DNA from: a virus
Strand: one strand, 5' to 3'
IMG/VR virus record: IMGVR_UViG_3300023180_006024
DNA length: 64,000 bases
The notes under the pieces are model-generated. The model had not been told where the DNA came from. It was given only the letters and a program-made list of their open reading frames with translations, and did no database searches. Both the position numbers and the translations under genes were made by a program. Below are positions 10,801 to 63,286 of the stretch, in pieces. Numbering within the stretch: the stretch's first letter is position 1; each line of letters begins with the position of its first letter.

Positions 10801-11296
10801 ACCAAAAGGACACCCTAATGCAGTGCAAGGAAGATATCCAAACGGAAATAGAGTGAGAAATAGTACAAGACACGACTGTATTACATTTAATGGAGAAAGC
10901 GGATATGCTCATGCAGCAGATATTGATTTGTATCAGGGTAATACTATATTAGATGGTAGAAACTCTAGCCACCAAGCTATACTAAGAAGATTTTTACAAG
11001 TATGTGTTCAACAAGGTGTAAAAGGGTTTGGTTGGGATTCTGGATCTCGTGGGCAATCTAGATATTATATGGGTCCGTGTAGATTCCATGTTGATCTTTA
11101 TGGATTTTTGTCATATTGTCCTGGACCGTGGAGCACATCTAGAGGAAGAGCAAATCCTTCAGGCAGAGTAAGTGAAGGTCCTATTGCAGTATGGGGAGAT
11201 AATATGAGGACTGCACCTACTGCCTGCAGATGGGTAAGAAATGGAAACATAATCAGTCAAAGATATGATTGGTTCCCAAGAGCAGTTTTAAGTTAA
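7859..11296 (+). CDS. baseplate central spike (gp5/VgrG-like) with C-terminal tail-lysozyme and M15-like peptidase domains
   Basis: OB-fold GMWFVPPDVGSKVLV, RTRTGHQILL and beta-helix-like repeats, then AAGIVGNIRVES...GIVQW (phage tail lysozyme) and STRH...AADID...FHVD (LAS/M15 Zn peptidase-like). Confidence 0.8.
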   Translation: MRSQERRSARSSDRSYNTGPFIGRIVSHLDQKFMGALQVQILNYNDTGDDYQASNEVITCFYAPPFYGATPSTGLQGGTTYAESTQSYGMWFVPPDVGSKVLVMLIEGRRDFGYWFACVPEEFMNFMIPDGRASTLNTTANADLQSEIPEMVAAAEGLKVPVGEYNRATIDPAGETQPTNYPKPRNDLFIERLTEQGLLADDIRGTTSTSARREVPSMVFGVSTPGPMDKRPNAPTTNIGTVQNEINVPSSRLGGSSIVMDDGDDKFVRVGPADSTPSEYIDREYGSTTEGDVTIPANELIRMRTRTGHQILLHNSEDLIYIGNARGTSWIEMTSNGKIDIYANDSISVHSENDLNFSADRDINFECRNMNMVIGGTYKNSTSKSHSTTSGEFFAVKAGDSITHDAGTFISDTAQSGISHSANSGSIGITESGEICIDSDRNINVNSADNFNLTTGLNFNLKSTGGIFLTSTEADLHLFSQQRMNINTNAVMNLRSESTMNLHTKSNMNTQVDGKHKSTADLGFEFFTPIAYNVWAEGNMNLKVDGDILSYSNGNTYIKSNNYINLQSTNDINVKSSQAIRINPTGALSLYSGNNTVYIDGTTDVRINEGGSTAANTADTARQAEEVTVFAPEAYFASEATQCATLPPVNPFEADLLARKPMHEPWAQHENLNPLLYTPERTEAGQPSEDSFKTPIADTFINIGKDRGTADTTVSTTTNRAIEPLDEGGDIGDDVDLDLVGLSDNVEFAFNYLKQQLNLTDAQAAGIVGNIRVESYPEIRPQAYNGAGGGLGARGIVQWRGDRIRKFRERYNKDILEASLQEQLDYLIWEITDPTSPEAWAKTLERLRETRTPAEAARSFEATFERSGGHNLTTRVRYAEEVYLAAQDAFELVERTEPGSPPHPDVRIERGEVVPEGESDVETNPNAESRSLSGDAGDIVIQQNRACSRRFDISPQLERILRRAAAAAGITKIYISSAGQAPKGHPNAVQGRYPNGNRVRNSTRHDCITFNGESGYAHAADIDLYQGNTILDGRNSSHQAILRRFLQVCVQQGVKGFGWDSGSRGQSRYYMGPCRFHVDLYGFLSYCPGPWSTSRGRANPSGRVSEGPIAVWGDNMRTAPTACRWVRNGNIISQRYDWFPRAVLS

Positions 11297-40270: not shown

Positions 40271-40839
40271 GCGTATTTGTAAATGTTGACAAATATGTGT
40301 CATTTGATGAAAATGGCACACTCTTAGGTATTTACAACAGAGAACCTACTGATGCAAACTACATCAAAGTAGAGCCTAGTGATGTGGAAACATTAATCAC
40401 AGGTAAAGAGCAGTTTAGACATTATCTAGTTATATTTGATAGTGATCAAAAAAAGCATGTTCTAAAACATATCTATAATGAAGATAACTACATGCCAAAT
40501 ATCAATGATCAAATATTTAAACTTCCTAGAACAAAAAACAATCCAGACTTAACTGTAACACAAGACATAAAAAATAAAAAATGGACATTTACAGTTGCAG
40601 AAGAAATATGCGAAAACTTTAGAAAAAATAACTTAAACTTTAACCAAGTAATGGGTTTTAGTATTACACGTAAAAATAATCCAAATCATTTACATCGTTT
40701 TTTTACTATTGACATTTCTAGTGTGATTACAGGTGATTATTCTATTGACTTTGACAGCGATTTAGAACTTGACCCTGACGGGTTTAGCGTGTATACTTCT
40801 AAGAGACTAGAAAGTTATTATCACGAGGTATTACTATGA
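40267..40839 (+). CDS. hypothetical protein
   Basis: 190-aa ORF translationally coupled on both sides. Confidence 0.55.
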   Translation: MSVFVNVDKYVSFDENGTLLGIYNREPTDANYIKVEPSDVETLITGKEQFRHYLVIFDSDQKKHVLKHIYNEDNYMPNINDQIFKLPRTKNNPDLTVTQDIKNKKWTFTVAEEICENFRKNNLNFNQVMGFSITRKNNPNHLHRFFTIDISSVITGDYSIDFDSDLELDPDGFSVYTSKRLESYYHEVLL

Positions 40840-41753
40840 CTGAATTTAGGGTATTAGATTATGATATAATTTACCTAAGCTATGATGAGCCAAATGCTGA
40901 AAAGAACTATGCAGACTTGTGCAAAAAGATTCCTTGGGCAAAAAGAGTACATGGTGTTAAAGGTAGCGATGCAGCACACAAAGCCTGTGCTGAGTTATCA
41001 GAATCTGATAGATTTATTACAGTTGACGGTGATAATATTATTAATCCTGACTTCTTAACAAAAAGTTTTAATTTAGATGATCACGAAGATGGACATTGGA
41101 ATAAAAATGTTAGTTTAGATGAATGTGTAATCAGTTGGAGTGCAAAAAACACAATCAACGGATTAGAGTATGGCAACGGTGGTATCAAATGCTGGCCTAA
41201 GCAAAAAGTATTAACCATGCGTACTCACGAAAATGCTGATCCTAATAATGCACATGCACAAGTTGATTTTTGTTGGGATATTGAATACATTCAGATGAAT
41301 GGTTGTTATAGTGAAATAATGAATAACGGATCTCCTCAACAAGCATGGAGAGCAGGTTTTCGTGAAGGTGTAAAGATGGCACTTGATAGAGGACTAAAGC
41401 CGACAGTAGAAGAGTTTCAGAAGAATCATTGGAAGAACTTGCATAGATTATATGTTTGGTTAATGGTAGGTGCAGATGTTGAAAACGGTGATTGGGCAAC
41501 CTATGGTGCAAGAGAAGGCTTGTATAAAACTATGTGTACTGATTGGGACTTTGTAAATGTGCGTGACTTTGATTGGTTAAATGAATATTGGGATAATAAA
41601 GATATTTCAGATATTGATCAACAATCACAAGAACTTGGATACAAGTTGATCGAAGAACTTGAGTTGCCTATTGCTGCTGAGCCATTAAACGGCAATCAAA
41701 GTTTGTTCTTTAAAACTGTATACACCAATCCGCCTAGAACAGCAAAGAGATAA
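40836..41753 (+). CDS. GT-A fold glycosyltransferase-like protein
   Basis: LSYDEPNA...RVHGVKG...AH...FITVDGDN (DxD)...NGLEYGNGG...AWRAGFRE. Confidence 0.65.
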   Translation: MTEFRVLDYDIIYLSYDEPNAEKNYADLCKKIPWAKRVHGVKGSDAAHKACAELSESDRFITVDGDNIINPDFLTKSFNLDDHEDGHWNKNVSLDECVISWSAKNTINGLEYGNGGIKCWPKQKVLTMRTHENADPNNAHAQVDFCWDIEYIQMNGCYSEIMNNGSPQQAWRAGFREGVKMALDRGLKPTVEEFQKNHWKNLHRLYVWLMVGADVENGDWATYGAREGLYKTMCTDWDFVNVRDFDWLNEYWDNKDISDIDQQSQELGYKLIEELELPIAAEPLNGNQSLFFKTVYTNPPRTAKR

Positions 41754-45632: not shown

Positions 45633-46587
45633 GTTACTCAAAATCACTCCAATGGCAGAGCCTTACGCATGTATTACTTGGCAAGTCAACAACTTTTGTA
45701 ACTTTCAATGTACATATTGCAATCCTGGTAACTGGGCAGGCGATGTAAGAAACAATGGTAATCTAGATCAGTATATTGAAAATGTAACAAAAATATTTCA
45801 AACGTACAAAGATAAAGGTTACAAATATTTTAAAATATTCTATAGTGGCGGCGAACCTACTCATTGGGAAAACTTTATTCCTCTTACAGAATATTTAAAA
45901 GACTGGTTAGGAGATACTCTAACAGTTAGTGTTAATACAAACTTATCTCGTCCTGTAAAATATTGGCAACAACATCATCATTTATTTGATGATATTATTG
46001 CAAGTTTTCATATTGAGTTCAGTAAAAAAGATAGATATATTGAAAATGCAAAGTTTTTGTGCGACAAAGTAAACTATTTGTGTACAAAAATGCTGATGCA
46101 CGAAGAACGCTTTTGGGAGATTGTTGAGTTTGGAAATCGGGTAAGAGAAGAAGTACCAAACTATAACTTAGAATGGACACCTCTGTTTGATGAAATGAGT
46201 GTGAATGCAGGACCTTGGGAGTACAGTGATCCTGAAAAAGTAAAGTTTTTAGAAGAAGCACAGTTTGAAACTGTTGAAAAACTTCCCAAGCCTTACAATC
46301 CAAACAAAGCTGTAAGCATGGCACATTATACTGATACTATTGAACCTATTAACAGTAACAAGATTATTGCTGCTAGACAAAACTTTTTTAAAGGATGGAA
46401 ATGTTTTGTAGATGATGCACTGTTTATTAATCCTAGAGGGGAAATCAGCAGTGCAAGTTGTGGTGTAGGACGAAATCATGGTAATATTTTACAAAAAAAC
46501 TTGCAATTTACTACAAGACCTGTTATATGTAGTAAAGAGCATTGTCATTGCGGAACTGATATTATTATACCAAAAGAACGATTATGA
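45625..46587 (+). CDS. radical SAM enzyme with C-terminal Cys cluster
   Basis: CNFQCTYC, SGGEPT, NTN; C-terminal GWKC...SC...CSKEHCHC. Confidence 0.9.
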   Translation: MSKLLKITPMAEPYACITWQVNNFCNFQCTYCNPGNWAGDVRNNGNLDQYIENVTKIFQTYKDKGYKYFKIFYSGGEPTHWENFIPLTEYLKDWLGDTLTVSVNTNLSRPVKYWQQHHHLFDDIIASFHIEFSKKDRYIENAKFLCDKVNYLCTKMLMHEERFWEIVEFGNRVREEVPNYNLEWTPLFDEMSVNAGPWEYSDPEKVKFLEEAQFETVEKLPKPYNPNKAVSMAHYTDTIEPINSNKIIAARQNFFKGWKCFVDDALFINPRGEISSASCGVGRNHGNILQKNLQFTTRPVICSKEHCHCGTDIIIPKERL

Positions 46588-47234
46588 ATATAGAAGAATG
46601 GCAAATATTTTATAAGTATCAAAACAGAGGAATGGTACGTCCTAACATTGTTTATGTTCCTCGCATTAGTCCAAATAAAAGCATATTTTGTATGCAATAT
46701 CAATATGATCGCAGATACTTTTTTGATAGAGCAGGATATACCCAAGCGCATATCGATTTCTTTTTTGAAAATGAATGCAAATGGCTAGAGCATGTTCAAA
46801 AAGAAAAGTTTGCTCCAGAGATTATTGATATCGATAAAAAGAAACAACTGATATTTTTCAAATGGTATGATACAAGTTTAAATCATTTAATAGAAAAAGC
46901 CAAATGGAAGAATGATTACACAAATAAAGTAAATGATGTTCTTGATGCATTAGAAAAACATAATATGATTAAAATGAACTTTTATCCTCATAATGCATAT
47001 TTAGATGATAATGATAATGTACGCATACATGATTTTTATGCATGTGCTAGTTTAAACTCTCCTTATATCCATATGGATAAAATTGAAGTTATTTTAGGTA
47101 ATATCAACAAGTTTTATTATGAAAGACATACAACTGACGGATTAGTAAATCTCAAAGATATGTATATTGAAGTTATTAAAAATAATAGAGGAGAATGGCC
47201 AGTTTGTCTAACTACAAATTTACAAACTTACTAA
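46584..47234 (+). CDS. protein-kinase/APH-fold protein (possibly catalytically atypical)
   Basis: FFENE, FAPEIIDID, KMNFYPHN (catalytic-loop position), IHDFY (DFG-like). Confidence 0.5.
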   Translation: MNIEEWQIFYKYQNRGMVRPNIVYVPRISPNKSIFCMQYQYDRRYFFDRAGYTQAHIDFFFENECKWLEHVQKEKFAPEIIDIDKKKQLIFFKWYDTSLNHLIEKAKWKNDYTNKVNDVLDALEKHNMIKMNFYPHNAYLDDNDNVRIHDFYACASLNSPYIHMDKIEVILGNINKFYYERHTTDGLVNLKDMYIEVIKNNRGEWPVCLTTNLQTY

Positions 47235-47953
47235 TAAACGGGTGTAGTCATTCTGCAGGTAGTGAAATATTTAGAAGTGGACTAGGAGATCACCCAGAAA
47301 ACAGGAAAAGATCTTTTGGAGCAAAGTTTGCTAATAGGCTAGGAGTATCCAAAGTTGATCTAAGTGTACCTGGTGCAAGCAACGATTATATTGCAAGAAC
47401 AACTTTATTTTATATATTAGATAATCCTAGACGTGCAAAAAATACACTGTTTCTTATACATTGGACAGGAGAACATAGAACAGAAATGTTTTATGATACA
47501 CCTGATGACAGTGGAAATGATGTATATGATTATGTAGATTATACACCTGATAAGCAATCAGGTCATGTGCATCATGATCATAGTAGTAAGCTATTTCCAA
47601 GAAAGTTTAACAATAATCAAAAAGTTCTACGTAAACATTTATTTTATAATTCTACGCATTGGTATGTGCAAAGATATTTGAATATTATACAAACACAGGC
47701 AAATATACAAAATATCGGAGCTCAGTTTATTTTTGCAAATGCTTTCCAAGCCTGTAAAATAGGAGGCAGATATCAGTTTTATAGAAACAAAGTCGATAGG
47801 ACTAGATTTAAAAACTTTGATAAGCCAGAAGAAAGTTTTTGGGAACATTGCAAGAGCCGCGGGTTTGATATTAGCGGACAAAAGTATTGGCACCATAAAG
47901 AAGATGCACACCAATACTGGGCAGATAAACTATTCGATGATTATTTCACCTAG
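47195..47953 (+). CDS. SGNH/GDSL-like hydrolase or acyltransferase (GCS variant)
   Basis: NGCSHSAG block I, PGASN block II, C-terminal WHH...AH..WA. Confidence 0.6.
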   Translation: MASLSNYKFTNLLINGCSHSAGSEIFRSGLGDHPENRKRSFGAKFANRLGVSKVDLSVPGASNDYIARTTLFYILDNPRRAKNTLFLIHWTGEHRTEMFYDTPDDSGNDVYDYVDYTPDKQSGHVHHDHSSKLFPRKFNNNQKVLRKHLFYNSTHWYVQRYLNIIQTQANIQNIGAQFIFANAFQACKIGGRYQFYRNKVDRTRFKNFDKPEESFWEHCKSRGFDISGQKYWHHKEDAHQYWADKLFDDYFT

Positions 47954-49261
47954 TTCCGCATTTATTCTGTTGTAAAAGTCTGGTATCAGTTTTATTTGAT
48001 TATGATTGTGTACTAGTATTTCTTCCATATCCTCATACATAAGCCTCATTTCTTCGATTGTAAATGAATCTATGTATTCAATTGTTTCGCATATCCTTGC
48101 AAGTCTATCTTTGTTGCTTATAATATCATCATAATCTTCTGGCCAATACTTGTCAAATGTTTTAAATCCCATATCTTTAAGCATTTGCAAAACACCTGGT
48201 GCCCCGCACAATAAAAATGGTCTGTAACTTTTGATAGCATTGAGTGTTTTTTCACTTATGTTAGGCCATGGTTGTGTAACACGACTTTCTTGCACAATAG
48301 CACAAAAACTTTCAAAATATGTATCTGTAGGATCGTGCGTAGTTCTTGCGTTGCCGCCTGCGTCTTCTGGTTCTATACTATCATTTGGTCCTTTTTTTGT
48401 AGGGTTATTGACAGCAAAACTTAGTGGAACTTTTTGTTGCAATATATCATTGCCTAGCAGTAATGTTTTAGATAGTGTTGGATGACGCAGTTCAAACTCT
48501 TTCCAAGAAAACCACATTCTACGTTTCATGTCTTCATTTGTCATTCCAAAATAAAAACTAACATTGTTAGTATCTATCATATTTTTTCCTGCTAAAAACG
48601 CAGTGATAAAATGTCTACTTGGATCATAACGCCATGCTCCGCTCCAAAACTTTTTTTGTATTTTTTCGGGAAAAAACTCAGGAGGCATTTCTTCTCTATT
48701 TTGGATAAAGTTTTTTCTGTCTCTAAGTTTTACATGACATGTCCACCATTCAACAAAAAGGTCCATAGACAATAGTTTTAGATTTGGATATTTTGGTTGA
48801 TAATATTCCCAACATTTATAATCTGTGCAATATACGTTTACATTTTCAAATCCATGACGCCCTGCCCATTCGTTTAAACTGTCGAGTTCGTATGCTCTAA
48901 TATCTTTAAGTTCGTCGGGTGAGTTGTCTATTTTTAATATATGAGGTTGTTTGTATTTTTCAGGATTGTATTTGTAGTGTGTAAGAGGTTCATAAAAATA
49001 AAATCCTAAAGTTTTACTTGCTAATATTTTTCTATGTTGTTCGGTGATAATCAAACTATCTAAATAGTCAATAGTGTGTGTACCGTTGAATACAGCAATA
49101 GGATGACTACTGTCAGTTATATTTGATTCTCGTATTAAATCAACAAGTTGTTCTATTTTGCTGATATCTTGCATAGATCGTCTTTCGCCATTACTTCCAA
49201 TAAGTTCGGGCAAAAGATTATTTTTTGGTCTAAAATATATTCCCATAAACCAGTTTGACAA
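47930..49261 (-). CDS. GT10/GT-B-like glycosyltransferase-related protein
   Basis: IVQES...NISEKTLNAI...PFLLCG...L..LK.MGFKTF..YW.E.YD resembles the GT10 E..TEK...P...G motif. Confidence 0.5.
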   Translation of the reverse strand: MSNWFMGIYFRPKNNLLPELIGSNGERRSMQDISKIEQLVDLIRESNITDSSHPIAVFNGTHTIDYLDSLIITEQHRKILASKTLGFYFYEPLTHYKYNPEKYKQPHILKIDNSPDELKDIRAYELDSLNEWAGRHGFENVNVYCTDYKCWEYYQPKYPNLKLLSMDLFVEWWTCHVKLRDRKNFIQNREEMPPEFFPEKIQKKFWSGAWRYDPSRHFITAFLAGKNMIDTNNVSFYFGMTNEDMKRRMWFSWKEFELRHPTLSKTLLLGNDILQQKVPLSFAVNNPTKKGPNDSIEPEDAGGNARTTHDPTDTYFESFCAIVQESRVTQPWPNISEKTLNAIKSYRPFLLCGAPGVLQMLKDMGFKTFDKYWPEDYDDIISNKDRLARICETIEYIDSFTIEEMRLMYEDMEEILVHNHNQIKLIPDFYNRINAELGEIIIE

Positions 49262-49312: not shown

Positions 49313-50101
49313 ATGGAAGTACATGATAACGGTTTGTTGATAAATCCTGAGCGTATAAATCAAACTATGGCATTTATGGGTCCAGAAGAAGAAGAAGCGT
49401 TTAAAAAAGAGTGTGAAAGAAACCCAGAATGGGAATGGGCAAATCTTCCTATCGAATATAAGTTTAATGAATTTGGGCATAGGACAAAATCTTTAAAAGA
49501 TTTGAGTCCTGGGTTTATGATGACATTTGGTTGTAGTTATACCGAAGGTGTTGGATTACGTCACGAAGACACATGGTCTTGGAAAGTAGCCGAAGCAAGA
49601 TGTACAGATGTATATAACGCAGCAGCACAAGGAACAGGTTGCGATGTAGCATGTTATCAAGCATCACAATGGATTAAAAACGGATTTCCTATTCCACACC
49701 TAGTTATTGTTCAGTGGCCTGCACATACAAGAAAAAGTTTTGTTCTAAATAAAGATGATCATTTCGGTTTTAAAGATATGGCCGAAGATAACGGTATTGA
49801 TGGCAAATGGTATAGACGAAGATATATTATGGACGAGGGTGAGTGTATCTGGAACAATCGTTTGTGGTTTGATCATTTTAATCTGTTATGGAAAAGTGTT
49901 GGTGTTCCTGTGCTTAACTTCACATGGGAAATGGATTATCAACCTATACTTAGAAGTCCTTATCAAGTTTGGCCTATTAGATGTAAAAATGGTAGTATGA
50001 AAGCAAGAGACCTAATGCATGATGGCATCGAGTGGCATCAAGAAACTGCTAATAAAATTTTACCGTTGTTAGATTTACCCGACTTCACGAACAAGATCTA
50101 G
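49313..50101 (+). CDS. SGNH/GDSL-like protein (GCS variant)
   Basis: YKFNEFGHR, FGCSYTEGVG, N.A..G.G, ARDLMH (DxxH). Confidence 0.65.
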   Translation: MEVHDNGLLINPERINQTMAFMGPEEEEAFKKECERNPEWEWANLPIEYKFNEFGHRTKSLKDLSPGFMMTFGCSYTEGVGLRHEDTWSWKVAEARCTDVYNAAAQGTGCDVACYQASQWIKNGFPIPHLVIVQWPAHTRKSFVLNKDDHFGFKDMAEDNGIDGKWYRRRYIMDEGECIWNNRLWFDHFNLLWKSVGVPVLNFTWEMDYQPILRSPYQVWPIRCKNGSMKARDLMHDGIEWHQETANKILPLLDLPDFTNKI

Positions 50102-51082
50102 TGTGCAACAATGAAAACACCCACCTAGTGTTCTAGCATGACGCAATGGTAGCATAGCACATTCTATTCCATGTGCTTCTAATGCTTTACGAGTTGGCTC
50201 TTGATGTTCTTCTAATACAACCAAGTTTGGATTTACACTAAACAAGTTAACATTCCACGTCCATATACTACTATTACATAGTCCTGGATAGTGTCCAGCA
50301 TCAACAGGGTCTGGTGCCCAAATAATATCCCAATCGTTAAAAGGAGCAGGTAAAACATCTTTGTCTTTAATACGACTTGGATTAGCTAAAAGCAGTCCTT
50401 CACGAAGGAAAGCAACGGTGCTATCTATATGCATGTAACTATACACATTTTCAAGTCTGTGCACACGTACATCTCCTGGTTCCATAAAATCGTATCTTGG
50501 TTTATTAATAAAATCTTGTAAATATGCAGCACCTGCTTTGTTACCACTATTGCTGACCAAGTACAAAATGTCATCATTTGCACGTATAGCATTAGCAGCG
50601 TCAAAACAAGGTGCTACTTCAGTGAGGGCAAGACGATCAGGATCGCCTACACAAGTTTCATCGTACAGGTTAGTTCGATCAATCCGATGAGACATATTAA
50701 CACCTGCTATGTGAGGGAGCATGTGATGAAACTCGTTGGTTCTTGCTGTTAAACTCATAGGGGCAGCAAGTAGTTTTTGGCCATGAACAAATACAGTATC
50801 ACGTGGGCAATAGTTGTAATATTCAACATCTGGTGTACGTTTAGGTCTTACAACTTCAACGCCTTCACCTTCTAAAAATTTTACAAACGTTTCAAGATCT
50901 TCGTTGCTTTCTTCTACAACTTGATCTGGATATAAACCAGCCTTGATATCGCTTACATCTTTTTTGTCTGCATAGTTGATACAACGTAAACTTATATCCA
51001 TTTCGGGAATACGGCAATAATCGGCTACGCCAACTACAACCTTCTTTAGTGGATCCCACTCATTAGTGCTATAAATATTCAT
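50075..51082 (-). CDS. amidinotransferase (glycine / inosamine-phosphate amidinotransferase family)
   Basis: NEWDPLKKVVVG, CPRD, FDAA, HIDST, C-terminal GGCFHCCTLDL with the catalytic Cys/His/Asp residues. Confidence 0.9.
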   Translation of the reverse strand: MNIYSTNEWDPLKKVVVGVADYCRIPEMDISLRCINYADKKDVSDIKAGLYPDQVVEESNEDLETFVKFLEGEGVEVVRPKRTPDVEYYNYCPRDTVFVHGQKLLAAPMSLTARTNEFHHMLPHIAGVNMSHRIDRTNLYDETCVGDPDRLALTEVAPCFDAANAIRANDDILYLVSNSGNKAGAAYLQDFINKPRYDFMEPGDVRVHRLENVYSYMHIDSTVAFLREGLLLANPSRIKDKDVLPAPFNDWDIIWAPDPVDAGHYPGLCNSSIWTWNVNLFSVNPNLVVLEEHQEPTRKALEAHGIECAMLPLRHARTLGGCFHCCTLDLVREVG

Positions 51083-51092
51083 ACTATATTTA
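51070..51092. promoter_or_regulatory. divergent late-promoter pair
   Basis: Plus-strand TATAAATA 51070-77 (inside the first codons of the opposite gene); minus-strand TAAATA 51092-87, 4 nt before the amidinotransferase ATG. Confidence 0.6.
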
Positions 51093-51102
51093 AGGATTAT
51101 AT

Positions 51103-51915
51103 ATGGGTAGATTATTCACTTTTGGTTGCAGTTTTACTAGCTACATGTGGCCAACTTGGGCAAACATTGTTGCATATGATCAAGAAGCAGAACACTACAA
51201 TTTAGCATTGCCTGGTTTAGGAAATGTTGGAATACATCATAGGATTATCGAGGCAGATATAAAATACAAGTTTCAGCCCGAAGACAAAATAATGATTTTA
51301 TGGACCAGTTTTAGTAGAGAAGACAGATTTATCGACGGACGTTGGCAAGCAGAAGGTAGTGTGTTTAATGCTGGTTGTAGATACGATAACCGTAGTTGGC
51401 TCAAAAATCACTGGAGTATGCAAAACGATCTTGTAAAAAATATGACTGCTATTATTACAGTTAATAAGTTGTACAAGGATAATATTATTTGGCAAGGGCA
51501 TAGTTTTACTCCATATAATAATGAAGCAGCACTAATATACGACGAATCAGAACACTATAACTTGCTTAAAGATTTTTATTCAAAAGAAATACCTCACATA
51601 GATTGGCATATGTTTGAAACTAATAAACCTTTTGGTACACTACAAGATAGTCATCCTGATATACTAGGTCATTTGCAAAAAGTTAGAGATTGGATTTATC
51701 CAAGTTTAGGACTAGAGTTAAGATCTAAAACTGAAGATCGTTTTACACTTATGCAACATTTTATTGTCGATTTTGTATTAGAAAATAAGATTAAGGAAGA
51801 CTTAGACAAAGTATATGATTTTATACATCGCAATCTTTATTTACGTGATGATTTTCAAGATATTAAAAAGTATTCAAGAAATATTTATGTTTTTGAAGAT
51901 ATGGAGTTTAGTTAA
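51103..51915 (+). CDS. SGNH/GDSL-like protein (GCS variant)
   Basis: FTFGCSFT..WPTWA, N.A.PG.GN, WTS..REDR, DSHP...H. Confidence 0.65.
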   Translation: MGRLFTFGCSFTSYMWPTWANIVAYDQEAEHYNLALPGLGNVGIHHRIIEADIKYKFQPEDKIMILWTSFSREDRFIDGRWQAEGSVFNAGCRYDNRSWLKNHWSMQNDLVKNMTAIITVNKLYKDNIIWQGHSFTPYNNEAALIYDESEHYNLLKDFYSKEIPHIDWHMFETNKPFGTLQDSHPDILGHLQKVRDWIYPSLGLELRSKTEDRFTLMQHFIVDFVLENKIKEDLDKVYDFIHRNLYLRDDFQDIKKYSRNIYVFEDMEFS

Positions 51916-52473
51916 ATCTGGATAGTCTTCTGTGCCCCAAATTTTTGGTAAGGTACTTATTGCGTCAGATAGTTTATCTAAACCTAGTTGTGCAGTTTCT
52001 GGAGTCATATAATAATGATATCCCATAGTTGAAATATCTTGTTCAGCCCATGGTGCATCTCTATGACGCCCGTCATAACCTAGTTTAATAAGAGCATCTC
52101 TATCCTCTTTATTGTCTAATAATATTACACCACCTCTGCCTAAACTCAAATGTTTTTTGTATTGAAAGCTGATACACATAAAGGTACCCGGTATATAACT
52201 ATACTGTCGCCACATAGTTGCAGCATCTATTATTTCATCAGTAATATAATAATATTCTTTCCATCTATCTTTTGCAAAGTTCCATTTTATATTAAGTTTA
52301 CTAAAGGTCATAGGAATGCTCAAGTAAGTATTTTTAGGACATTTTGCTTGATTTACTTGTTTATAACGTAAACATAGTTCAACAGCATGTGTACAACAAT
52401 CTGTGCTCACTGCATAAGGTGCACCAAAAAAATCAGCTATTCTGTTTTCAAATGTGTTAACTATGTCAAACAT
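51874..52473 (-). CDS. DegT/DnrJ/StrS-family PLP aminotransferase, short form
   Basis: FE..IA.F.GA.YAV...CT.A..L, DAA, SFQYKKHL..GRGG (PLP lysine region), GYHYYM; only 199 aa. Confidence 0.8.
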   Translation of the reverse strand: MFDIVNTFENRIADFFGAPYAVSTDCCTHAVELCLRYKQVNQAKCPKNTYLSIPMTFSKLNIKWNFAKDRWKEYYYITDEIIDAATMWRQYSYIPGTFMCISFQYKKHLSLGRGGVILLDNKEDRDALIKLGYDGRHRDAPWAEQDISTMGYHYYMTPETAQLGLDKLSDAISTLPKIWGTEDYPDLTKLHIFKNINIS

Positions 52474-52485
52474 AAGTATATTTAT
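52473..52485. promoter_or_regulatory. ultra-compact bidirectional late promoter
   Basis: CAT-AAGTATATTT-ATG: TAAGTA-N5-ATG on the plus strand and TAAATA-N5-ATG on the minus strand. Confidence 0.6.
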
Positions 52486-53548
52486 GTATGAACTAGAGAA
52501 CCATCATGACAATACTGGTAGATATGTGTTTTATGCTTGGGGGCCTGACGGTCCAGAACCTGTCGAAAAAGCATTACGTCATCCTCGAACCAAAGAAATA
52601 ACTATAGTAGGACCCGAAGAGTGGGAACCTGTGCTTTTAGGCGGCGATCGTGACACTGTAGATGAAACTTTAAAGTTTGCCGCAAGGAAAAATATTAAAT
52701 TAAATGCGTATTATGGTGCAGTTATGGATAAACAACTTAATACTAGATATCAGCATATAGATTTTAATATCAAGCATTGGCCTAATTATTTTGGACATAG
52801 AATAGCGTATAGAAGCAAGTTTGGCATTTATCCTCAGAAGCCTGAAGCAGATATTCTGAAGAAACATTTTGTATCAATGAATGGACGTCCCCATTGGTGG
52901 CGCTGTATGTTCATTGACAAACTTTTTGGAAAAGGTTTGTTTGATTACGGGTATATTAGTTGGCATGAGTTTGATTACGAAGATTATCATACATTATGGG
53001 ATTTTGAATACTGGGAGCCTAAAAACTTAGAGTTTGACAGCGATTTTAAACAAGACAACGGTATGTGCGATATATTCGTACCTCCAAAAGAGTTTAAGAA
53101 CAGTGTTTTTAGCATAATAAGTGAAAGTAATCTAAACTGTCTGTTTTTAACAGAAAAAACATATATGGCAATCTATCATACTCGTCCGTTTATTGTTTGG
53201 GGTGTTCCTTACACGCATAGATATTTAAAAAATATAGGTTTTAAGTTATTTGATAATGTTATTGACTATAAGTTTGATAAAATAGAAGATGACGAAAAAA
53301 GATGCGAAATGTTTATTCAACAAGTACATGACTTTTGTCTTATTGATAAACAAGAGTTACACAAACTTACAAAAGATGCAGCAGAATACAACTTTGAAGT
53401 TTTTTTAGATCATTTAAAAACAAAAAAGTTTGTTCCTGAAGGGTTTGAAAAGTTTTGTATTGAAAATATTGATAACCACAAACAGCTTTTAACATATTTA
53501 GAATGTGTAAATAGTTATGAGCCATTAATGGAGTTTTTAAAAAGTTAA
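52484..53548 (+). CDS. GT10/GT-B-like glycosyltransferase-related protein
   Basis: F.SMNGRP..WR; IISES...FLTEKTYMAI...PFIVWG...L..IGFKLF...DY.FD. Start set at ATG 52484, because the track start overlaps the opposite gene. Confidence 0.5.
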   Translation: MYELENHHDNTGRYVFYAWGPDGPEPVEKALRHPRTKEITIVGPEEWEPVLLGGDRDTVDETLKFAARKNIKLNAYYGAVMDKQLNTRYQHIDFNIKHWPNYFGHRIAYRSKFGIYPQKPEADILKKHFVSMNGRPHWWRCMFIDKLFGKGLFDYGYISWHEFDYEDYHTLWDFEYWEPKNLEFDSDFKQDNGMCDIFVPPKEFKNSVFSIISESNLNCLFLTEKTYMAIYHTRPFIVWGVPYTHRYLKNIGFKLFDNVIDYKFDKIEDDEKRCEMFIQQVHDFCLIDKQELHKLTKDAAEYNFEVFLDHLKTKKFVPEGFEKFCIENIDNHKQLLTYLECVNSYEPLMEFLKS

Positions 53549-53549
53549 C

Positions 53550-54461
53550 ATGAGAATATTACTAACAGGATCTAGCGGATTTATTGGGCAGCATTTGTTG
53601 CCAAGATTGAAAACAATCGGAGAAGTATTTGAACTAAAAAGTGATCTTACACATCATACAGGAGTACAGCAAGAGGTAAAAGAAATCAAACCCGATATTG
53701 TTGTACACTTGGCTGCTCGCACAGAAGTACAAAAAAGTTTTTATGAGCAGGTAAGTTTTAGTGAAGTAAACTACGTAGGAACAGTAAATCTTATCGAAGC
53801 ATGTAGAGCTGTTGATCCTATGCCATATTTTGTGTTTGCAAGCACAATGGAAGTTTATGGATGGCAACCTATTAGTGACGAGGTAGAACAAACTGGCACA
53901 TATGTAAATAGTGTTGCATTTGACGAAAACACTACCCCTCATCCTAATGCACCATATGCAGTTGCTAAGTATGGTTGTGAAAAGTATTTAGAATATGCAG
54001 AAAGAGCATATGGATTAAACTGGGCAAGTTTTAGACAAACTAATGCATATGGTCGTAAAGACAATGATTTCTTTGTAACAGAACAAATCATTAGTCAAAT
54101 GCTCAAAGGTGATACTTGTAATCTAGGTTATGCCGAACCATACAGAAACTTTATTTACATTGAAGATTTGCTTGATGCATGGATGGCAGTTATTACAAAC
54201 GGCGATAAAGTCAAAGGCAACATATTTACTATTGGTCCAGACGACCCACGGAAGATTAGACATTGTGCAGAATATATTGCAGAACAACTAGAATGGACTG
54301 GACAAATCAATTGGGATACAAAAGATCCTCGTCACGGAGAGATTTGGTGGCTAAACAGTAATCATAATAAAATCACCGAAGTTACGGGATGGGCACCTAA
54401 AATTACCTACGAAGAAGGAATAGATAGGACCATTCATCATTGGAAACAAATAATCAACTAA
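53550..54461 (+). CDS. NAD-dependent NDP-sugar epimerase/dehydratase (extended SDR)
   Basis: TGSSGFIG, HLAA, ASTMEVYG, YAVAK (YxxxK), NAYG, RNFIYIEDL. Confidence 0.92.
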   Translation: MRILLTGSSGFIGQHLLPRLKTIGEVFELKSDLTHHTGVQQEVKEIKPDIVVHLAARTEVQKSFYEQVSFSEVNYVGTVNLIEACRAVDPMPYFVFASTMEVYGWQPISDEVEQTGTYVNSVAFDENTTPHPNAPYAVAKYGCEKYLEYAERAYGLNWASFRQTNAYGRKDNDFFVTEQIISQMLKGDTCNLGYAEPYRNFIYIEDLLDAWMAVITNGDKVKGNIFTIGPDDPRKIRHCAEYIAEQLEWTGQINWDTKDPRHGEIWWLNSNHNKITEVTGWAPKITYEEGIDRTIHHWKQIIN

Positions 54462-55567
54462 ACTACTGTGATGTAAAACACACAAGATACATTGAGCCAT
54501 TTAACTTACACACAAAAAAATACAGTGAATGGTTAGCTAATCCTAGTGGAAAATATTTCTTTATAGTTCCTATTGCAAATATATTCAACTGTGAGGATAA
54601 AATACAAGAAGCAAAAAACAACAAAGATGTTTATGTTTTGTTTTCCGATGTATTAGAAGGATATGCACTTAGATATTTTCCAAAACTTTATGAATGCACA
54701 CAAAAATATGATTGTATTAATAAGATATATTTTGCTACAGGTTTATATCAAGCAGAAGCTGAATATAATCGTTGGTTGCGTGAAAAGAAACTTAAAAAAA
54801 CATTTGAAGTATTTTATTATCCTGAATGGTATCATAGAGTATACGACAACTATTATGATCAGCCATTAGACGATATTCATCTAATAAGAAAACATAACTT
54901 TTTTTGTTGTCTAAATAATCGTCCACGAGCTCATCGTATGCAAACTGTTGCCTACTTGAATCATTTAAACATGTTACAATACGGCAGAGTAAGTTGCTTA
55001 GACAATCACTACGAAAGAGATACAAATAAACTAACACCTGAACAACTTTTATTTCCTTATAGTCAAAACTATAGCGATAAACATAAACAAATATTAAAAG
55101 AACAAACAACTGAACTTTGGAAAAAGTTACCTTTAAACATCGATACAACAGACTTTTCTCAAGGTTGTCGCCCGCATGATTACAATAGAGAAATATATGA
55201 AGATTGTTTTTTAAATATAGTGACTGAAACACATTATCATGAAGTACATCAAAAACATTATCATATATTTTTAAGTGAAAAGATGTGGAAGCCCATTGTT
55301 TGTAAACAAGCGTTTATAGTGATAGGTCCAAAAAATACATTACAATATCTAAAAAAACTTGGCTTTAAAACATTTTCGTGTATAATAAACGAAAGCTATG
55401 ATTCTGAAGACGAAAATACAAGATTGTTTAGTGCAATTGATGCGTTGAAAGAAGCAATGATGAAATATGATAGAGCCACAATGATACATCTAACTAAAGA
55501 TATACGTAAACACAACTTAGAACATTTTTTAAGAATACAAAAACAAATGGTTAAAACATGTTGGTAG
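54440..55567 (+). CDS. GT10/GT-B-like glycosyltransferase-related protein
   Basis: FCCLNNRPRAHR; NIVTET...FLSEKMWKPI...FIVIG...L.YLK.LGFKTF...INESYD. Start codon uncertain. Confidence 0.5.
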   Translation: METNNQLNYCDVKHTRYIEPFNLHTKKYSEWLANPSGKYFFIVPIANIFNCEDKIQEAKNNKDVYVLFSDVLEGYALRYFPKLYECTQKYDCINKIYFATGLYQAEAEYNRWLREKKLKKTFEVFYYPEWYHRVYDNYYDQPLDDIHLIRKHNFFCCLNNRPRAHRMQTVAYLNHLNMLQYGRVSCLDNHYERDTNKLTPEQLLFPYSQNYSDKHKQILKEQTTELWKKLPLNIDTTDFSQGCRPHDYNREIYEDCFLNIVTETHYHEVHQKHYHIFLSEKMWKPIVCKQAFIVIGPKNTLQYLKKLGFKTFSCIINESYDSEDENTRLFSAIDALKEAMMKYDRATMIHLTKDIRKHNLEHFLRIQKQMVKTCW

Positions 55568-60526: not shown

Positions 60527-61586
60527 GATCTCCTGCTCGTTGATCAAAGTGTACCATTGCTCCAATATTATCTGCAAACTCAATAATTTTCTGTTCTTTT
60601 TGTTTTCTATATTCTGTGCTATAGAATGGAGTAGTGCATTCGAAACAAAAAACATTACTCATTTCGATATATGTAAGTCCTCCGTTAAATCCTATCATTT
60701 CGATAAAGTCTTCTGTGTTAGCTATAACATCAATAACGTGATATTCTGCACTCAAATGACTTGTTTTTTCTTTAATGTATTCTATTGCTTTAGGTGAATG
60801 ATCAAAAAACTTGTAATGAGTATCAGGTCTGCCTATGTACTCATACATATTGCCGCTTGCAGGCAAAACAGCAACCAAACAATTCCTTGCCCTGTCTGGT
60901 AAGTTGTCACTACCAGTATTTTCTTTGTAAACTAAATCTGTAATAGAGTAATGATATCTTTTATGCAAATAATCTATGCCAGTGCCGTTTGGATAAATGT
61001 AGTTTTTTGAGTTACGTTGTTTCTCGTTAAATGCATACATCTTATGTCCGTTATTAATACCATGGCTAATAACTTTCCATCCATGTAGTTTGTGTCGATA
61101 ATTATAAAACTTATATCCAGTGTCTATCCATAAAGGAGTATAATCGTCATGAATGTTTTCGTCACTTTTTACAGGTATTACTTGTCTGTTATATGTACAG
61201 TGTTCTGTTTGTCCGATTTCTGTGTCTAACATTTTTAAATTAATGACATAGCATTGTTCATGTAAATGAAAATATGCATCTCCCATGTCTAAAAGGTGTC
61301 CTAGCAGATAATAATCACCTTTTATTGAATCAAAAAAATCTTCGCCGTGTAAAAACTCTGTGCCAGCACTTATAACAACAGCTTTTTCGTAGTCCAACTG
61401 AGCAAGTGTATGTTCTTCATCTCTTGTAACATACACATCAAAGTTCATACCTACACAGTTCTGTATTGTATAATCTGCTTGATTTTTAACATATTCTTTT
61501 GTAATGCCAGAGTACTTGTGAGTATCGTCTACAATAACAACACAAAAGTCTTCTCTGCTGTGAAACTTACCTGGATACTTTATCAT
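60498..61586 (-). CDS. hypothetical protein
   Basis: 362-aa ORF coupled to the upstream hydroxylase; HEQCYVINL and HDDYTPLW motifs; no confident family. Confidence 0.55.
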   Translation of the reverse strand: MIKYPGKFHSREDFCVVIVDDTHKYSGITKEYVKNQADYTIQNCVGMNFDVYVTRDEEHTLAQLDYEKAVVISAGTEFLHGEDFFDSIKGDYYLLGHLLDMGDAYFHLHEQCYVINLKMLDTEIGQTEHCTYNRQVIPVKSDENIHDDYTPLWIDTGYKFYNYRHKLHGWKVISHGINNGHKMYAFNEKQRNSKNYIYPNGTGIDYLHKRYHYSITDLVYKENTGSDNLPDRARNCLVAVLPASGNMYEYIGRPDTHYKFFDHSPKAIEYIKEKTSHLSAEYHVIDVIANTEDFIEMIGFNGGLTYIEMSNVFCFECTTPFYSTEYRKQKEQKIIEFADNIGAMVHFDQRAGDLNLLPYWHY

Positions 61587-62256
61587 ATTGCTTCTTATAA
61601 CTCCTTACAACAAGATTTGCAAATAGTGTGTGCATACTGCCAGGAATAACATGTGTGATATTGTGTATTCTATCTGTGTCAGTTGGATTATGCACATTGT
61701 GATCTTTGAAAATGTTTACCAAAAACTGTTTTCCGTCAGCAAATGGAACAACAGTGTTTTCTACACGCATCTCACATCCTACAGGATGATTGATTGCAGT
61801 GTTGATTGGTATTTGCAGTGTGTGCCATGCACTTAAATCTATGTCACCTGGATTGTCGTTGTGTGTGTCTATCATACCACCTGCACCAAGTTTCATAAAT
61901 CTACTTCTGTATATAAACTCTGCAGGAAACTGCAACCAAAAGTTTTTGATGTACTGACACAAGTTGCCAAGTTCTGTCCAATCGTGTGCAGGAGGCAGTT
62001 CGTAATCGTACACCCACCAGTGATTGGTTTTGTCTGTGTCTATGCCGTACAGTGTGCAAGCCTGCCACCCTTGGTGTGAGCCTTCGCCTGTGCTTTCATC
62101 TCTGTGATCTACATAATAATCATCTGCAAGTTCTGCTTCTGCTTTGAACTGGTTGATATTCAGCATAGGATAATCCAGTTCTATGTAATCAAAGTTGCTT
62201 TCTTGGAATATCCAAGTCACTTGATCATACAGTGGTAGGTCTGGTAATGCTTTCAT
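61567..62256 (-). CDS. 2OG-Fe(II) oxygenase, aspartyl/asparaginyl beta-hydroxylase-like
   Basis: RFMKL..GG.I.THND (HxD), H.V.N.T..DRIH. Start reassigned to ATG 62256 with AAGGAG RBS. Confidence 0.7.
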   Translation of the reverse strand: MKALPDLPLYDQVTWIFQESNFDYIELDYPMLNINQFKAEAELADDYYVDHRDESTGEGSHQGWQACTLYGIDTDKTNHWWVYDYELPPAHDWTELGNLCQYIKNFWLQFPAEFIYRSRFMKLGAGGMIDTHNDNPGDIDLSAWHTLQIPINTAINHPVGCEMRVENTVVPFADGKQFLVNIFKDHNVHNPTDTDRIHNITHVIPGSMHTLFANLVVRSYKKQYDKVSR

Positions 62257-63286
62257 ATTCGCTCCTTGATTGTGCTTTGGGCACACACATGCCACATCCG
62301 CACCTACTGTTTGGACACACAATAGTTCTATCTTGGTTTTCCAGCACATAGTTGAGTATACCATCTGTGTTGCGTAAACTGCCTATTGCACCTCTGCCTT
62401 CAAACTTGGCTTTGCAAGTCTGATGATGATACACTTTTTGTGTGTGTTGGTCTATGTGTAAAAAGTGTTTGTTTACACTGCAATACCAACCTTTGAAGTT
62501 TGTGTTTACAGCACTGATCTTGCTCCAACAGTTGTTGCACTTGCCCAGTATGTCTCTGTTACCACAACAACCTCGTGGCATTTGATTGCCACTTAATATT
62601 TGTTCCTGTGTGTCTGCATCAATGCCGTGGTAGTCAAAAAACCATGCTTGCTGTTCTTGCGTGTAAGGATGACTTGTTCTACGCAATACACCTTCGCCGT
62701 CTTTGAACCACTCTGTTGTGCCCAAGTTACCGTCTCCAATAATAGTAGGAAATACTATTATACCATATTCTCGCAAAATGTCAACTGTTTCTACACATTC
62801 TGCCCAATGGTCTGTGTGCATCATTACATTAACTGTTAGCCATACACCGTTGTCTTTCAACAATCGAGCATTGTCTATGGTTCTTTGTTTGCTGAAGTGT
62901 TTTGCTTCTGCATGATAACTCAATGTAACGCCCACAATATTTTGTTTGATAGCGTCTATGTGTTTTTCTGGCCATGTGCCATTACTGGTAAGTCCTACTG
63001 TAAAGTCACTGGTATCTTTTATGTGTTGTACAAAGTCCCAAAATCTAGGATTGACAGTTGGTTCACCGCCCGTAAAGTTGATGTTTGCATTTGGTTGGTT
63101 GTACATCGTTGTGTAGTTTTTAACAAACTCATATGTGTGCAACAGTTCTTCCCAGCTTGTAGGTGCACTGTATGTGTTGTGTCTATTGCTTTCGCAGTAA
63201 GTACAGTCAAAGTTGCAACGGCGCCCTATATCCCATGTAACTGTCATGGGTTCGGGTTTGGCTAGTTTTATTGCTTCTACTTCCAT
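62225..63286 (-). CDS. radical SAM enzyme with C-terminal Cys clusters (paralogue of 58456-59478)
   Basis: CNFDCTYC, TGGEPT, TSNG; RGCCG...GWYC...CPNSRCGCGMCVPKA. Confidence 0.9.
   Translation of the reverse strand: MEVEAIKLAKPEPMTVTWDIGRRCNFDCTYCESNRHNTYSAPTSWEELLHTYEFVKNYTTMYNQPNANINFTGGEPTVNPRFWDFVQHIKDTSDFTVGLTSNGTWPEKHIDAIKQNIVGVTLSYHAEAKHFSKQRTIDNARLLKDNGVWLTVNVMMHTDHWAECVETVDILREYGIIVFPTIIGDGNLGTTEWFKDGEGVLRRTSHPYTQEQQAWFFDYHGIDADTQEQILSGNQMPRGCCGNRDILGKCNNCWSKISAVNTNFKGWYCSVNKHFLHIDQHTQKVYHHQTCKAKFEGRGAIGSLRNTDGILNYVLENQDRTIVCPNSRCGCGMCVPKAQSRSEYESITRPTTV

Follow-up and report, generated by a model that had tools for sequence, protein, structure and literature searches.

What would a phage make with an amidinotransferase, a sugar aminotransferase and a nucleotide-sugar epimerase or dehydratase encoded close to each other? 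This question is raised by a stretch of 64,000 nucleotides of viral DNA, referred to here as the window (IMG/VR virus record IMGVR_UViG_3300023180_006024), in which the three genes are found between positions 50075 and 54461. Streptidine synthesis proceeds by oxidation, transamination by a DegT-family enzyme (StsC), phosphorylation and amidino transfer (StrB1). By comparison with it, a preliminary description of the locus, made from the sequence alone, proposed that a keto-sugar is converted into an amino sugar, and this in turn into a guanidino-sugar or a cyclitol. The analysis reported here gives good support to a conserved module formed by the three genes. The sugar branch of the proposal appears plausible, being backed by synteny and by nucleotide-sugar partners, whereas the streptidine-like cyclitol branch is not supported, as the partners are not cyclitol enzymes. 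The evidence inclines us, if only somewhat, to the view that the short-chain dehydrogenase/reductase (SDR), a reduced DegT enzyme (mini-DegT) and the amidinotransferase would form a three-step route leading from a nucleotide-activated sugar to a guanidino-deoxy sugar.

The three enzymes of the module

The predicted product of the gene at 50075-51082 (minus strand, 335 residues) is an intact StrB1-type amidinotransferase, as the preliminary description had stated. Its best match among solved structures is StrB1 of Streptomyces griseus (1bwd; E 1.8e-56, 194.8 bits, residues 6-332). HsvA (9e-35, 123.5 bits), AGAT (1e-28, about 103 bits) and SxtG (9e-26, 93.9 bits) are weaker relatives, and the closeness to StrB1 rather than to these three is judged by the bit scores against solved structures. 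The homology with StrB1 is full-length and includes the same Cys-His-Asp set and the Asp/Arg residues related to the substrate. Asp108, Arg127, Asp179, His227, Asp229 and Cys332 of StrB1 correspond here to D95, R114, D161, H218, D220 and C325; all the catalytic residues are therefore present, with Cys325, His218 and Asp as the predicted catalytic set and D95, R114, D161 and D220 as predicted substrate-binding residues. The six positions are invariant in 15 viral homologues, with identities down to 36%. The family was identified only by the search against solved structures; Pfam, NCBIfam and PHROGs gave no named match to the protein above threshold. Homologues were found in 66 viral and 17 bacterial loci, and the family has few members worldwide, with 798 representatives at E<=1e-3 out of 1.84 billion.

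The mini-DegT gene, at 51874-52473 of the same strand, encodes only 199 residues, which correspond to the large domain of sugar aminotransferases that binds pyridoxal 5'-phosphate (PLP). The match to PF01041 has an E value of 1.1e-13 (51.6 bits against a cut-off of 19.8), and the profile is covered only in parts. A typical DegT enzyme is composed of two domains and has about 370 residues (360-400), whereas the C-terminal small domain is missing from the mini-DegT. The preliminary description had called this gene a DegT aminotransferase; the family match and the retained PLP lysine and aspartate agree with it, but the protein is not a normal enzyme of the family. D83-x-A85 and S102-F103-x3-K107 (the SFxxxK motif, with the PLP lysine) are invariant in 32 family members and align with the motifs of 4zwv. 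On superposition, an AlphaFold2 model (pLDDT 95) matches the large domain of sugar aminotransferases, and Foldseek placed GDP-perosamine synthase as the top match of this predicted model (E 2e-10), followed by ArnB, PglE and WbpE. The TM-scores are 0.65-0.74 when normalised by the query and 0.34-0.41 when normalised by the target, only the large domain being covered. In total 153 PDB matches were obtained at E<=1e-3, and among the matches listed there are sugar aminotransferases and their close relatives (3-amino-5-hydroxybenzoate (AHBA) synthase, ColD). This likeness in predicted fold and the gene contexts described below suggest that the mini-DegT acts like a nucleotide-sugar 4-aminotransferase.

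Proteins related to the mini-DegT are numerous in metagenomes, where more than 8000 with lengths of 193-208 residues were found (8000 candidates were scored, all with E<1e-3). The longer relatives are not full-length DegT proteins; they are fusions to methyltransferase, SDR (P0247), PF08795, PF05050 and GTP-cyclohydrolase-I domains (P0121-P0252). We know of no characterised sugar aminotransferase without the C-terminal domain. Two other explanations of the short length were considered and rejected. The first one is that the gene is a fragment or one half of a split gene, against which stand the length kept across thousands of proteins, the compact and confident model and the lack of close full-length relatives. 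The other one is recoding: the frames of the window are normal in the standard code, with the three module genes at the coordinates given here, and reading TAG as Q or TGA as W (table 4) opens no better frames.

The third gene, at 53550-54461 of the plus strand, encodes an extended SDR of 303 residues, of the nucleotide-sugar epimerase/dehydratase/decarboxylase type (PF01370, E 5.8e-39; PF16363, 3e-37), which bears out the nucleoside diphosphate (NDP)-sugar SDR of the preliminary description. It carries the Rossmann motif GSSGFIG and the YxxxK motif in the form YAVAK. Besides, a Thr-Met-Glu motif (ASTMEVYG) is kept in 37 orthologues; elsewhere the motifs of the subtypes are Thr-Asp-Glu in 4,6-dehydratases and Thr-Ser-Glu in decarboxylases, and the Thr-Met-Glu form fits a putative enzyme of either the dehydratase or the decarboxylase type. 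The protein is not an orthologue of GDP-mannose 4,6-dehydratase (GMD), with which it shares 24% identity.

Linkage of the genes in viruses and bacteria

Viral contigs with relatives of the amidinotransferase (66 contigs, 33-91% identity) were gathered, all their open reading frames (ORFs) were clustered and the neighbours were counted over 68 loci. The mini-DegT lies within 4 kb of the amidinotransferase in 51 of these loci. The preliminary description had made its proposal depend on the co-occurrence with sugar aminotransferases in related genomes, and such co-occurrence is observed both here and in several bacterial phyla. Many of the divergent lineages have the mini-DegT gene directly upstream of the amidinotransferase gene, on the same strand and with overlapping stop and start codons (9306-10004 and 10001-10996 in locus L059; also L041, L040 and L032), and the pairing persists in a lineage with no more than 33% identity between its amidinotransferase and that of the window. 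Orthologues of the SDR (53-62% identity) adjoin both genes in several divergent lineages. The commonest neighbour of the amidinotransferase, found in 55 of the 68 loci, is a family of GT-B-fold paralogues described below. Further recurrent neighbours are members of the UDP-glucose/GDP-mannose-dehydrogenase family, a small 2-oxoglutarate (2OG)/Fe(II) oxygenase (HxD...H...R), a NodU/CmcH carbamoyltransferase and a B12-dependent radical S-adenosylmethionine (SAM) enzyme.

Related to this, the 2OG/Fe(II)-oxygenase-like protein has about 170 residues, with HxD...H...R invariant, and it adjoins the amidinotransferase in many lineages (L050:9465-10001; L001:8504-8998); it is absent from the island that surrounds the module in the window. 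It might serve for the formation of a keto-sugar or for hydroxylation. One viral group, considered again below, has the amidinotransferase without any DegT gene. There, the stretch directly following the amidinotransferase repeatedly contains a gene for a UvdE-like protein (UV damage endonuclease or xylose-isomerase-like TIM barrel, E 2e-31; L050:10953-11972, a cluster with members in 16 loci), and a 419-residue ORF that follows the amidinotransferase gave no match in Pfam or PDB.

The module has a cultured relative in Synechococcus phage S-SCSM2R (PQ898602, ORF305-310), whose amidinotransferase is 64% identical to that of the window and whose 195-residue 'AHBA synthase', a mini-DegT, is 52% identical. 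A distance of 2.9 kb separates the two genes, and their neighbours code for glycosyltransferases, a radical-SAM enzyme and a 2OG oxygenase. Unlike the window, this phage has transferases of the GT2 and GT25 types and the small 2OG oxygenase, and it lacks orthologues of the SDR, of the GT-B paralogues and of the SGNH-like genes found near the module. The only literature found on homologues of the module is the annotation of this phage, where they were labelled 'antibiotic synthesis genes' by annotation alone (PMC12801897).

The bacterial relatives of the amidinotransferase are about 40% identical to it. On a 2.2-Mb contig of Bdellovibrio sp. HCB2-146 (L148:8677-19162) the amidinotransferase gene is flanked by two radical-SAM genes, and a co-directional run coding for a SPASM radical-SAM protein, UDP-glucose dehydrogenase (UGDH), SDR and mini-DegT follows a few kb away; a GT-B paralogue is also present. 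The DegT gene is full-length in Lentisphaerae, Phycisphaerae, Victivallales and Pirellulaceae, where it is placed directly downstream of the amidinotransferase gene; in Lentisphaerae an NDP-hexose C-methyltransferase gene follows the pair. As far as gene order can tell, these bacterial loci offer independent support for the linkage between amidinotransferase and DegT.

When the mini-DegT was used as the query of a reciprocal search, 80 viral loci were obtained, only 26 of them with the amidinotransferase and 56 with an SDR, which is usually adjacent. In a typical layout that lacks the amidinotransferase (L136:9454-11575; also L077:9459-11599) a hexapeptide acyltransferase, the mini-DegT and a GMD (E 1e-111) follow one another, with UDP-GlcNAc 2-epimerase, GT2 and GT17 genes alongside. 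From its gene content this layout looks like a phage pathway of the N-acyl-perosamine type, where the mini-DegT would occupy the position of the aminotransferase. Taking together 133 mini-DegT loci, the amidinotransferase is present in 75 and the hexapeptide acyltransferase in 34, while 24 have neither and none has both; counted by unique mini-DegT sequences, the split is 40 with amidinotransferase, 25 with acyltransferase and 20 with neither. In a quick maximum-likelihood tree of the mini-DegT, the copies linked to the acyltransferase and the unlinked ones form one clade (SH-aLRT 98). The copies linked to the amidinotransferase make up all the remaining, deeper diversity, those of Bdellovibrionota included. 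The simplest reading of these patterns is that the amidinotransferase would replace the acyltransferase as the enzyme capping a newly made sugar amine. The lack of any sampled locus with both the amidinotransferase and the acyltransferase, the mini-DegT tree, the linkages with full-length DegT genes in bacteria and the existence of an SDR-mini-DegT fusion are what the present analysis adds.

The phage and its tailoring island

The window belongs to a jumbo phage distantly related to T4, with genes for gp46/47-like recombination nucleases, a baseplate hub and tail fibres, and an ORF of 4591 residues; its source is an uncultured giant marine phage. The gp46-like protein is nearest (48% identity) to those of jumbo phages such as Pseudomonas PA5oct and Sinorhizobium Phosso. 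Near-relative contigs in IMG/VR have 76-170 kb with estimated completeness of 21-48%, and the genome should therefore have roughly 350 kb. A megablast search of the 47-57 kb region against isolate phages gave no match. Counts of the T4-type late promoter TATAAATA show no enrichment (6 observed against about 10 expected).

Behind the tail-fibre genes there is a tailoring island of about 22 kb (38602-60526), described from Pfam matches and gene clustering. It contains GT2-like ORFs, about nine radical-SAM/SPASM genes, a methyltransferase-like ORF and three paralogues each of the GT-B and SGNH-like genes; part of the evidence is a lead from Atlas for 40836-41753. In place of the small 2OG/Fe(II)-oxygenase-like protein, the window's island has an Asp/Arg-hydroxylase-like ORF at 61567-62364 on the minus strand. 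No candidate transmembrane helix was detected in the 28 proteins of the island and its flanks (36254-63286; Kyte-Doolittle, window of 19 residues, threshold 1.6), and from these sequences the whole machinery looks cytoplasmic and soluble.

Two genes that were absent from the preliminary description interleave with those of the module. One of them, at 52454-53548 of the plus strand, encodes a putative glycosyltransferase, with paralogues at 47930-49261 (minus strand) and 54440-55567 (plus strand). It gave no match in Pfam or by sequence search in PDB. On the evidence of an AlphaFold2 model (pLDDT 85), the predicted fold of this protein and its paralogues is that of GT-B glycosyltransferases: the best 40 matches, with VIA Z scores from 11.5 to 8, are only GT-B enzymes, and Foldseek gives probabilities of 0.9-0.99 to fucosyltransferases, exostosins and GT4. 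As listed, the gene begins with a GTG at 52454 and thereby overlaps the start of the mini-DegT gene; an ATG at 52485 (MYELENHH...) is the likelier start, and the two divergent start codons would therefore be about 11 bp apart.

The other interleaved gene, at 51103-51915 of the plus strand, encodes an SGNH-like protein with an 'FGCS' motif, is present in about 35 of the 68 loci and has paralogues at 47195-47953 and 49313-50101. It has no Pfam match, and the paralogue at 47195-47953 matches DUF6071; in Atlas the protein falls in virus-only clusters, some of them with DUF6071. A function as glycan acyl esterase or transferase is possible.

A kinase-fold gene about 3 kb upstream had been pointed out in the preliminary description. 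The ORF in question (46584-47234, plus strand, 216 residues) is weakly protein-kinase-like: it matches ROCK1 in PDB with an E value of 1.5e-3 over residues 106-160 only, it has no Pfam match and it appears in about 6 of the 68 related loci, so that it is not a conserved partner of the module.

The nucleotide identity between the window (40000-61000) and the closest contig, L008, is mosaic. Values of 95-100% (46.0-47.0 kb) and 94-96% (55.5-57.5 kb) contrast with 71-81% at 49-53.5 kb, the stretch of the amidinotransferase, the SGNH-like gene, the mini-DegT and the GT-B gene. This pattern suggests recombinational exchange or a quicker divergence of the central cassette.

A route to a guanidino-deoxy sugar and its alternatives

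In the proposed pathway, the SDR (with its NAD-binding, Tyr-x3-Lys and Thr-Met-Glu motifs) would first oxidise the sugar at C4 and so form an NDP-4-keto sugar, in a reaction that might include dehydration or decarboxylation. The mini-DegT, with PLP bound to Lys107, would then transaminate the ketone to an NDP-amino sugar, as its family, fold and context suggest. In the third step, proposed from the kinship with StrB1 and the conserved linkage, the amidino group of L-arginine would be transferred to Cys325 with release of ornithine, and from there to the sugar amine. The result would be a permanently cationic guanidino group, where other phages would N-acylate the same kind of amine. Finally, the sugar may be transferred by the GT-B paralogues to an acceptor in the cytoplasm, for which a macromolecule of the phage, e.g. 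a fibre protein of the virion, is the most plausible choice. Further tailoring of the sugar may come from the SGNH-like, methyltransferase-like and radical-SAM enzymes.

All the proteins appear soluble, and no flippase, polymerase or polyprenyl-phosphate transferase was seen among the genes; a cytoplasmic target is therefore likelier than a lipid-linked surface polysaccharide. The island lies beside fibre genes here and the module beside giant ORFs in L039, L041 and L042, a placement that hints weakly at virion proteins as the target. Extended to its full scope, the proposal would be that an NDP-guanidino-deoxy sugar is made in many giant phages of aquatic habitats, and in a few bacteria (e.g. 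Bdellovibrio), by means of a 195-residue aminotransferase and a StrB1-type amidinotransferase, and that this sugar is placed on a phage macromolecule (virion fibres, possibly DNA). We put the chances of this whole statement a little short of even.

The enzymes are members of known families, the mini-DegT being an atypical, reduced one, and by analogy the proposed route is the logic of StsC and StrB1 moved to nucleotide-sugar chemistry in phages. What the streptidine pair would share with the module is a DegT-type transamination followed by an arginine-dependent amidination of an anionic amino-polyol. The phage differs in having nucleotide-sugar enzymes and glycosyltransferases, no conserved kinase and an aminotransferase of 199 residues. 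The likeness to the GDP-perosamine pathway (GMD, Per, PerB) and to the Ugd/ArnA/ArnB pathway of UDP-L-Ara4N lies in the order of events, with an SDR forming a 4-keto sugar, a DegT enzyme forming the 4-amine and a later capping of this amine. Related to this, the UGDH-SDR-mini-DegT run of Bdellovibrio recalls the Ugd/ArnA/ArnB route to a 4-amino-pentose, and the GMD-mini-DegT pair recalls perosamine synthesis. In the phage, however, the cap would be set by an amidinotransferase instead of an acyl- or formyltransferase, and its SDR is not the GMD orthologue. DegT aminotransferases are also part of virus-encoded glycan machinery in the fibril sugar clusters of Mimivirus, which resemble the present island in their soluble, virus-encoded nucleotide-sugar tailoring enzymes and in their glycosyltransferases near structural genes. 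To our knowledge, no amidinotransferase is known from Mimivirus-type glycan systems, and no guanidino-deoxy sugar building block has been described for a virus or for a cell-surface glycan. Full-text literature searches ('guanidino sugar'; amidinotransferase with nucleotide sugar) gave no relevant paper and no guanidino sugar described in glycans. Among antibiotics, those of the myomycin type may contain a guanidino-mannose, a point on which the literature searches likewise yielded nothing of relevance.

Several points weigh against the proposed route. Gene identities, conserved residues and synteny are its whole basis, and the acceptor amine is deduced from gene linkage only. The mini-DegT, a putative aminotransferase, has no C-terminal domain, which in the solved DegT enzymes helps to bind nucleotide sugars. 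The PDB matches of the SDR are spread over GalE, GDP-6-deoxymannose reductase, RmlB and UXS, with no clear winner for the reaction type. The counts over the sets of loci, both those with the amidinotransferase and those with the mini-DegT, describe a pattern and not independent samples, as the loci were picked by similarity and related phages are included. Besides, the viral group L048-L066, with amidinotransferases 33-36% identical to that of the window, combines UGDH, the small 2OG oxygenase and the amidinotransferase with no DegT gene within 10 kb, and in the groups L037/38 and L044-46 there are no sugar genes nearby, the amidinotransferase being found among small unrelated ORFs. Finally, some relatives of the amidinotransferase (34-39% identity; P0269, P0277, P0288, P0294, P0330) are fusion proteins, in which the added part is a class II aminoacyl-tRNA-synthetase-like domain, a TauD-type 2OG oxygenase, an FAD oxidoreductase, a HalD halogenase or a non-ribosomal peptide synthetase A-T module. 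The fusions to TauD, synthetase-like, halogenase and peptide synthetase modules indicate that the family would also act on amino-acid-type substrates, and the acceptor might therefore be the amine of a substituent instead of a ring amine.

These last fusions, with their amino-acid-handling domains, lead to the alternative that the amidinotransferase works in the island on an amine other than that of a nucleotide-sugar ring carbon, for example on an amino acid or a diamine joined to a uronic acid by an amide bond, or on an amino sugar already built into a finished glycan or glycoprotein. The constant association of the amidinotransferase with a UDP-glucose-dehydrogenase-family gene, a maker of uronic acids, and with the 2OG oxygenase in the group without DegT would agree with it. 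We nevertheless hold it to be unlikely, as the pairing with DegT is tight and often translationally coupled in most lineages and extends to four bacterial phyla, and no ATP-grasp or amide ligase was detected by Pfam in the window. A slighter chance still is given to a stand-alone auxiliary metabolic gene, surrounded by unrelated neighbours, that would produce a free guanidino compound (guanidinoacetate, homoarginine or an amidinated polyamine) from host arginine. AGAT, HsvA and SxtG are among the solved relatives, and the two viral groups with the gene among small unrelated ORFs would suit such a role; but the bit scores place the protein much nearer to StrB1 than to any of the three, and the synteny with DegT and glycosyltransferases is kept across lineages.

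The closeness to StrB1 would itself suit a free aminocyclitol or aminoglycoside-like small molecule, an 'antibiotic' of the streptidine or bluensidine type, as the label given to the S-SCSM2R homologues in PMC12801897 implies. Carbamoyltransferase and B12-radical-SAM genes, typical of aminoglycoside clusters, are present in some related loci. Yet the module is accompanied by nucleotide-sugar enzymes (GMD, UGDH, SDR) and by several glycosyltransferases, an exporter is absent and the island proteins look soluble. The kinase-like ORF is weak and not conserved, and partial Pfam, NCBIfam and PHROGs scans of the window ORFs, with no targeted search made, revealed neither an inositol-phosphate or 2-deoxy-scyllo-inosose synthase nor an inositol dehydrogenase. 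We consider such a product quite improbable, and assign a similarly low probability to the transfer of the sugar or of the guanidino group to phage DNA as a base hypermodification. Known pathways of thymidine hypermodification involve PLP enzymes, radical-SAM enzymes and kinase-like proteins, which speaks for DNA as the target, as does the solubility of all the enzymes. In addition, T4 DNA beta-glucosyltransferase heads the structural matches of the GT-B paralogue (Z 11.5), with T4 alpha-glucosyltransferase also listed. These Z scores, however, are tied within about 1-2 units with those of many ordinary GT-B enzymes, and the module is also found in bacterial chromosomes. Moreover, a gene of the thymidylate-synthase/dCMP-hydroxymethylase family is absent from four of five related viral records, including a record of 320 kb judged to be 92% complete.

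If the guanidino-sugar route is correct, glycobiology would gain a new charged sugar, made by enzymes that had previously been tied to aminoglycoside antibiotics. The mini-DegT, of which marine metagenomes contain very many copies, would represent the smallest scaffold known for a sugar aminotransferase. Cultured carriers of the module or of its homologues are Synechococcus phage S-SCSM2R and Bdellovibrio sp. HCB2-146. For the phages themselves, a permanent positive charge on the fibres or on the DNA could alter the adsorption to anionic cell surfaces, the resistance to host nucleases or to glycan-binding defences, and the stability of the virion in seawater.

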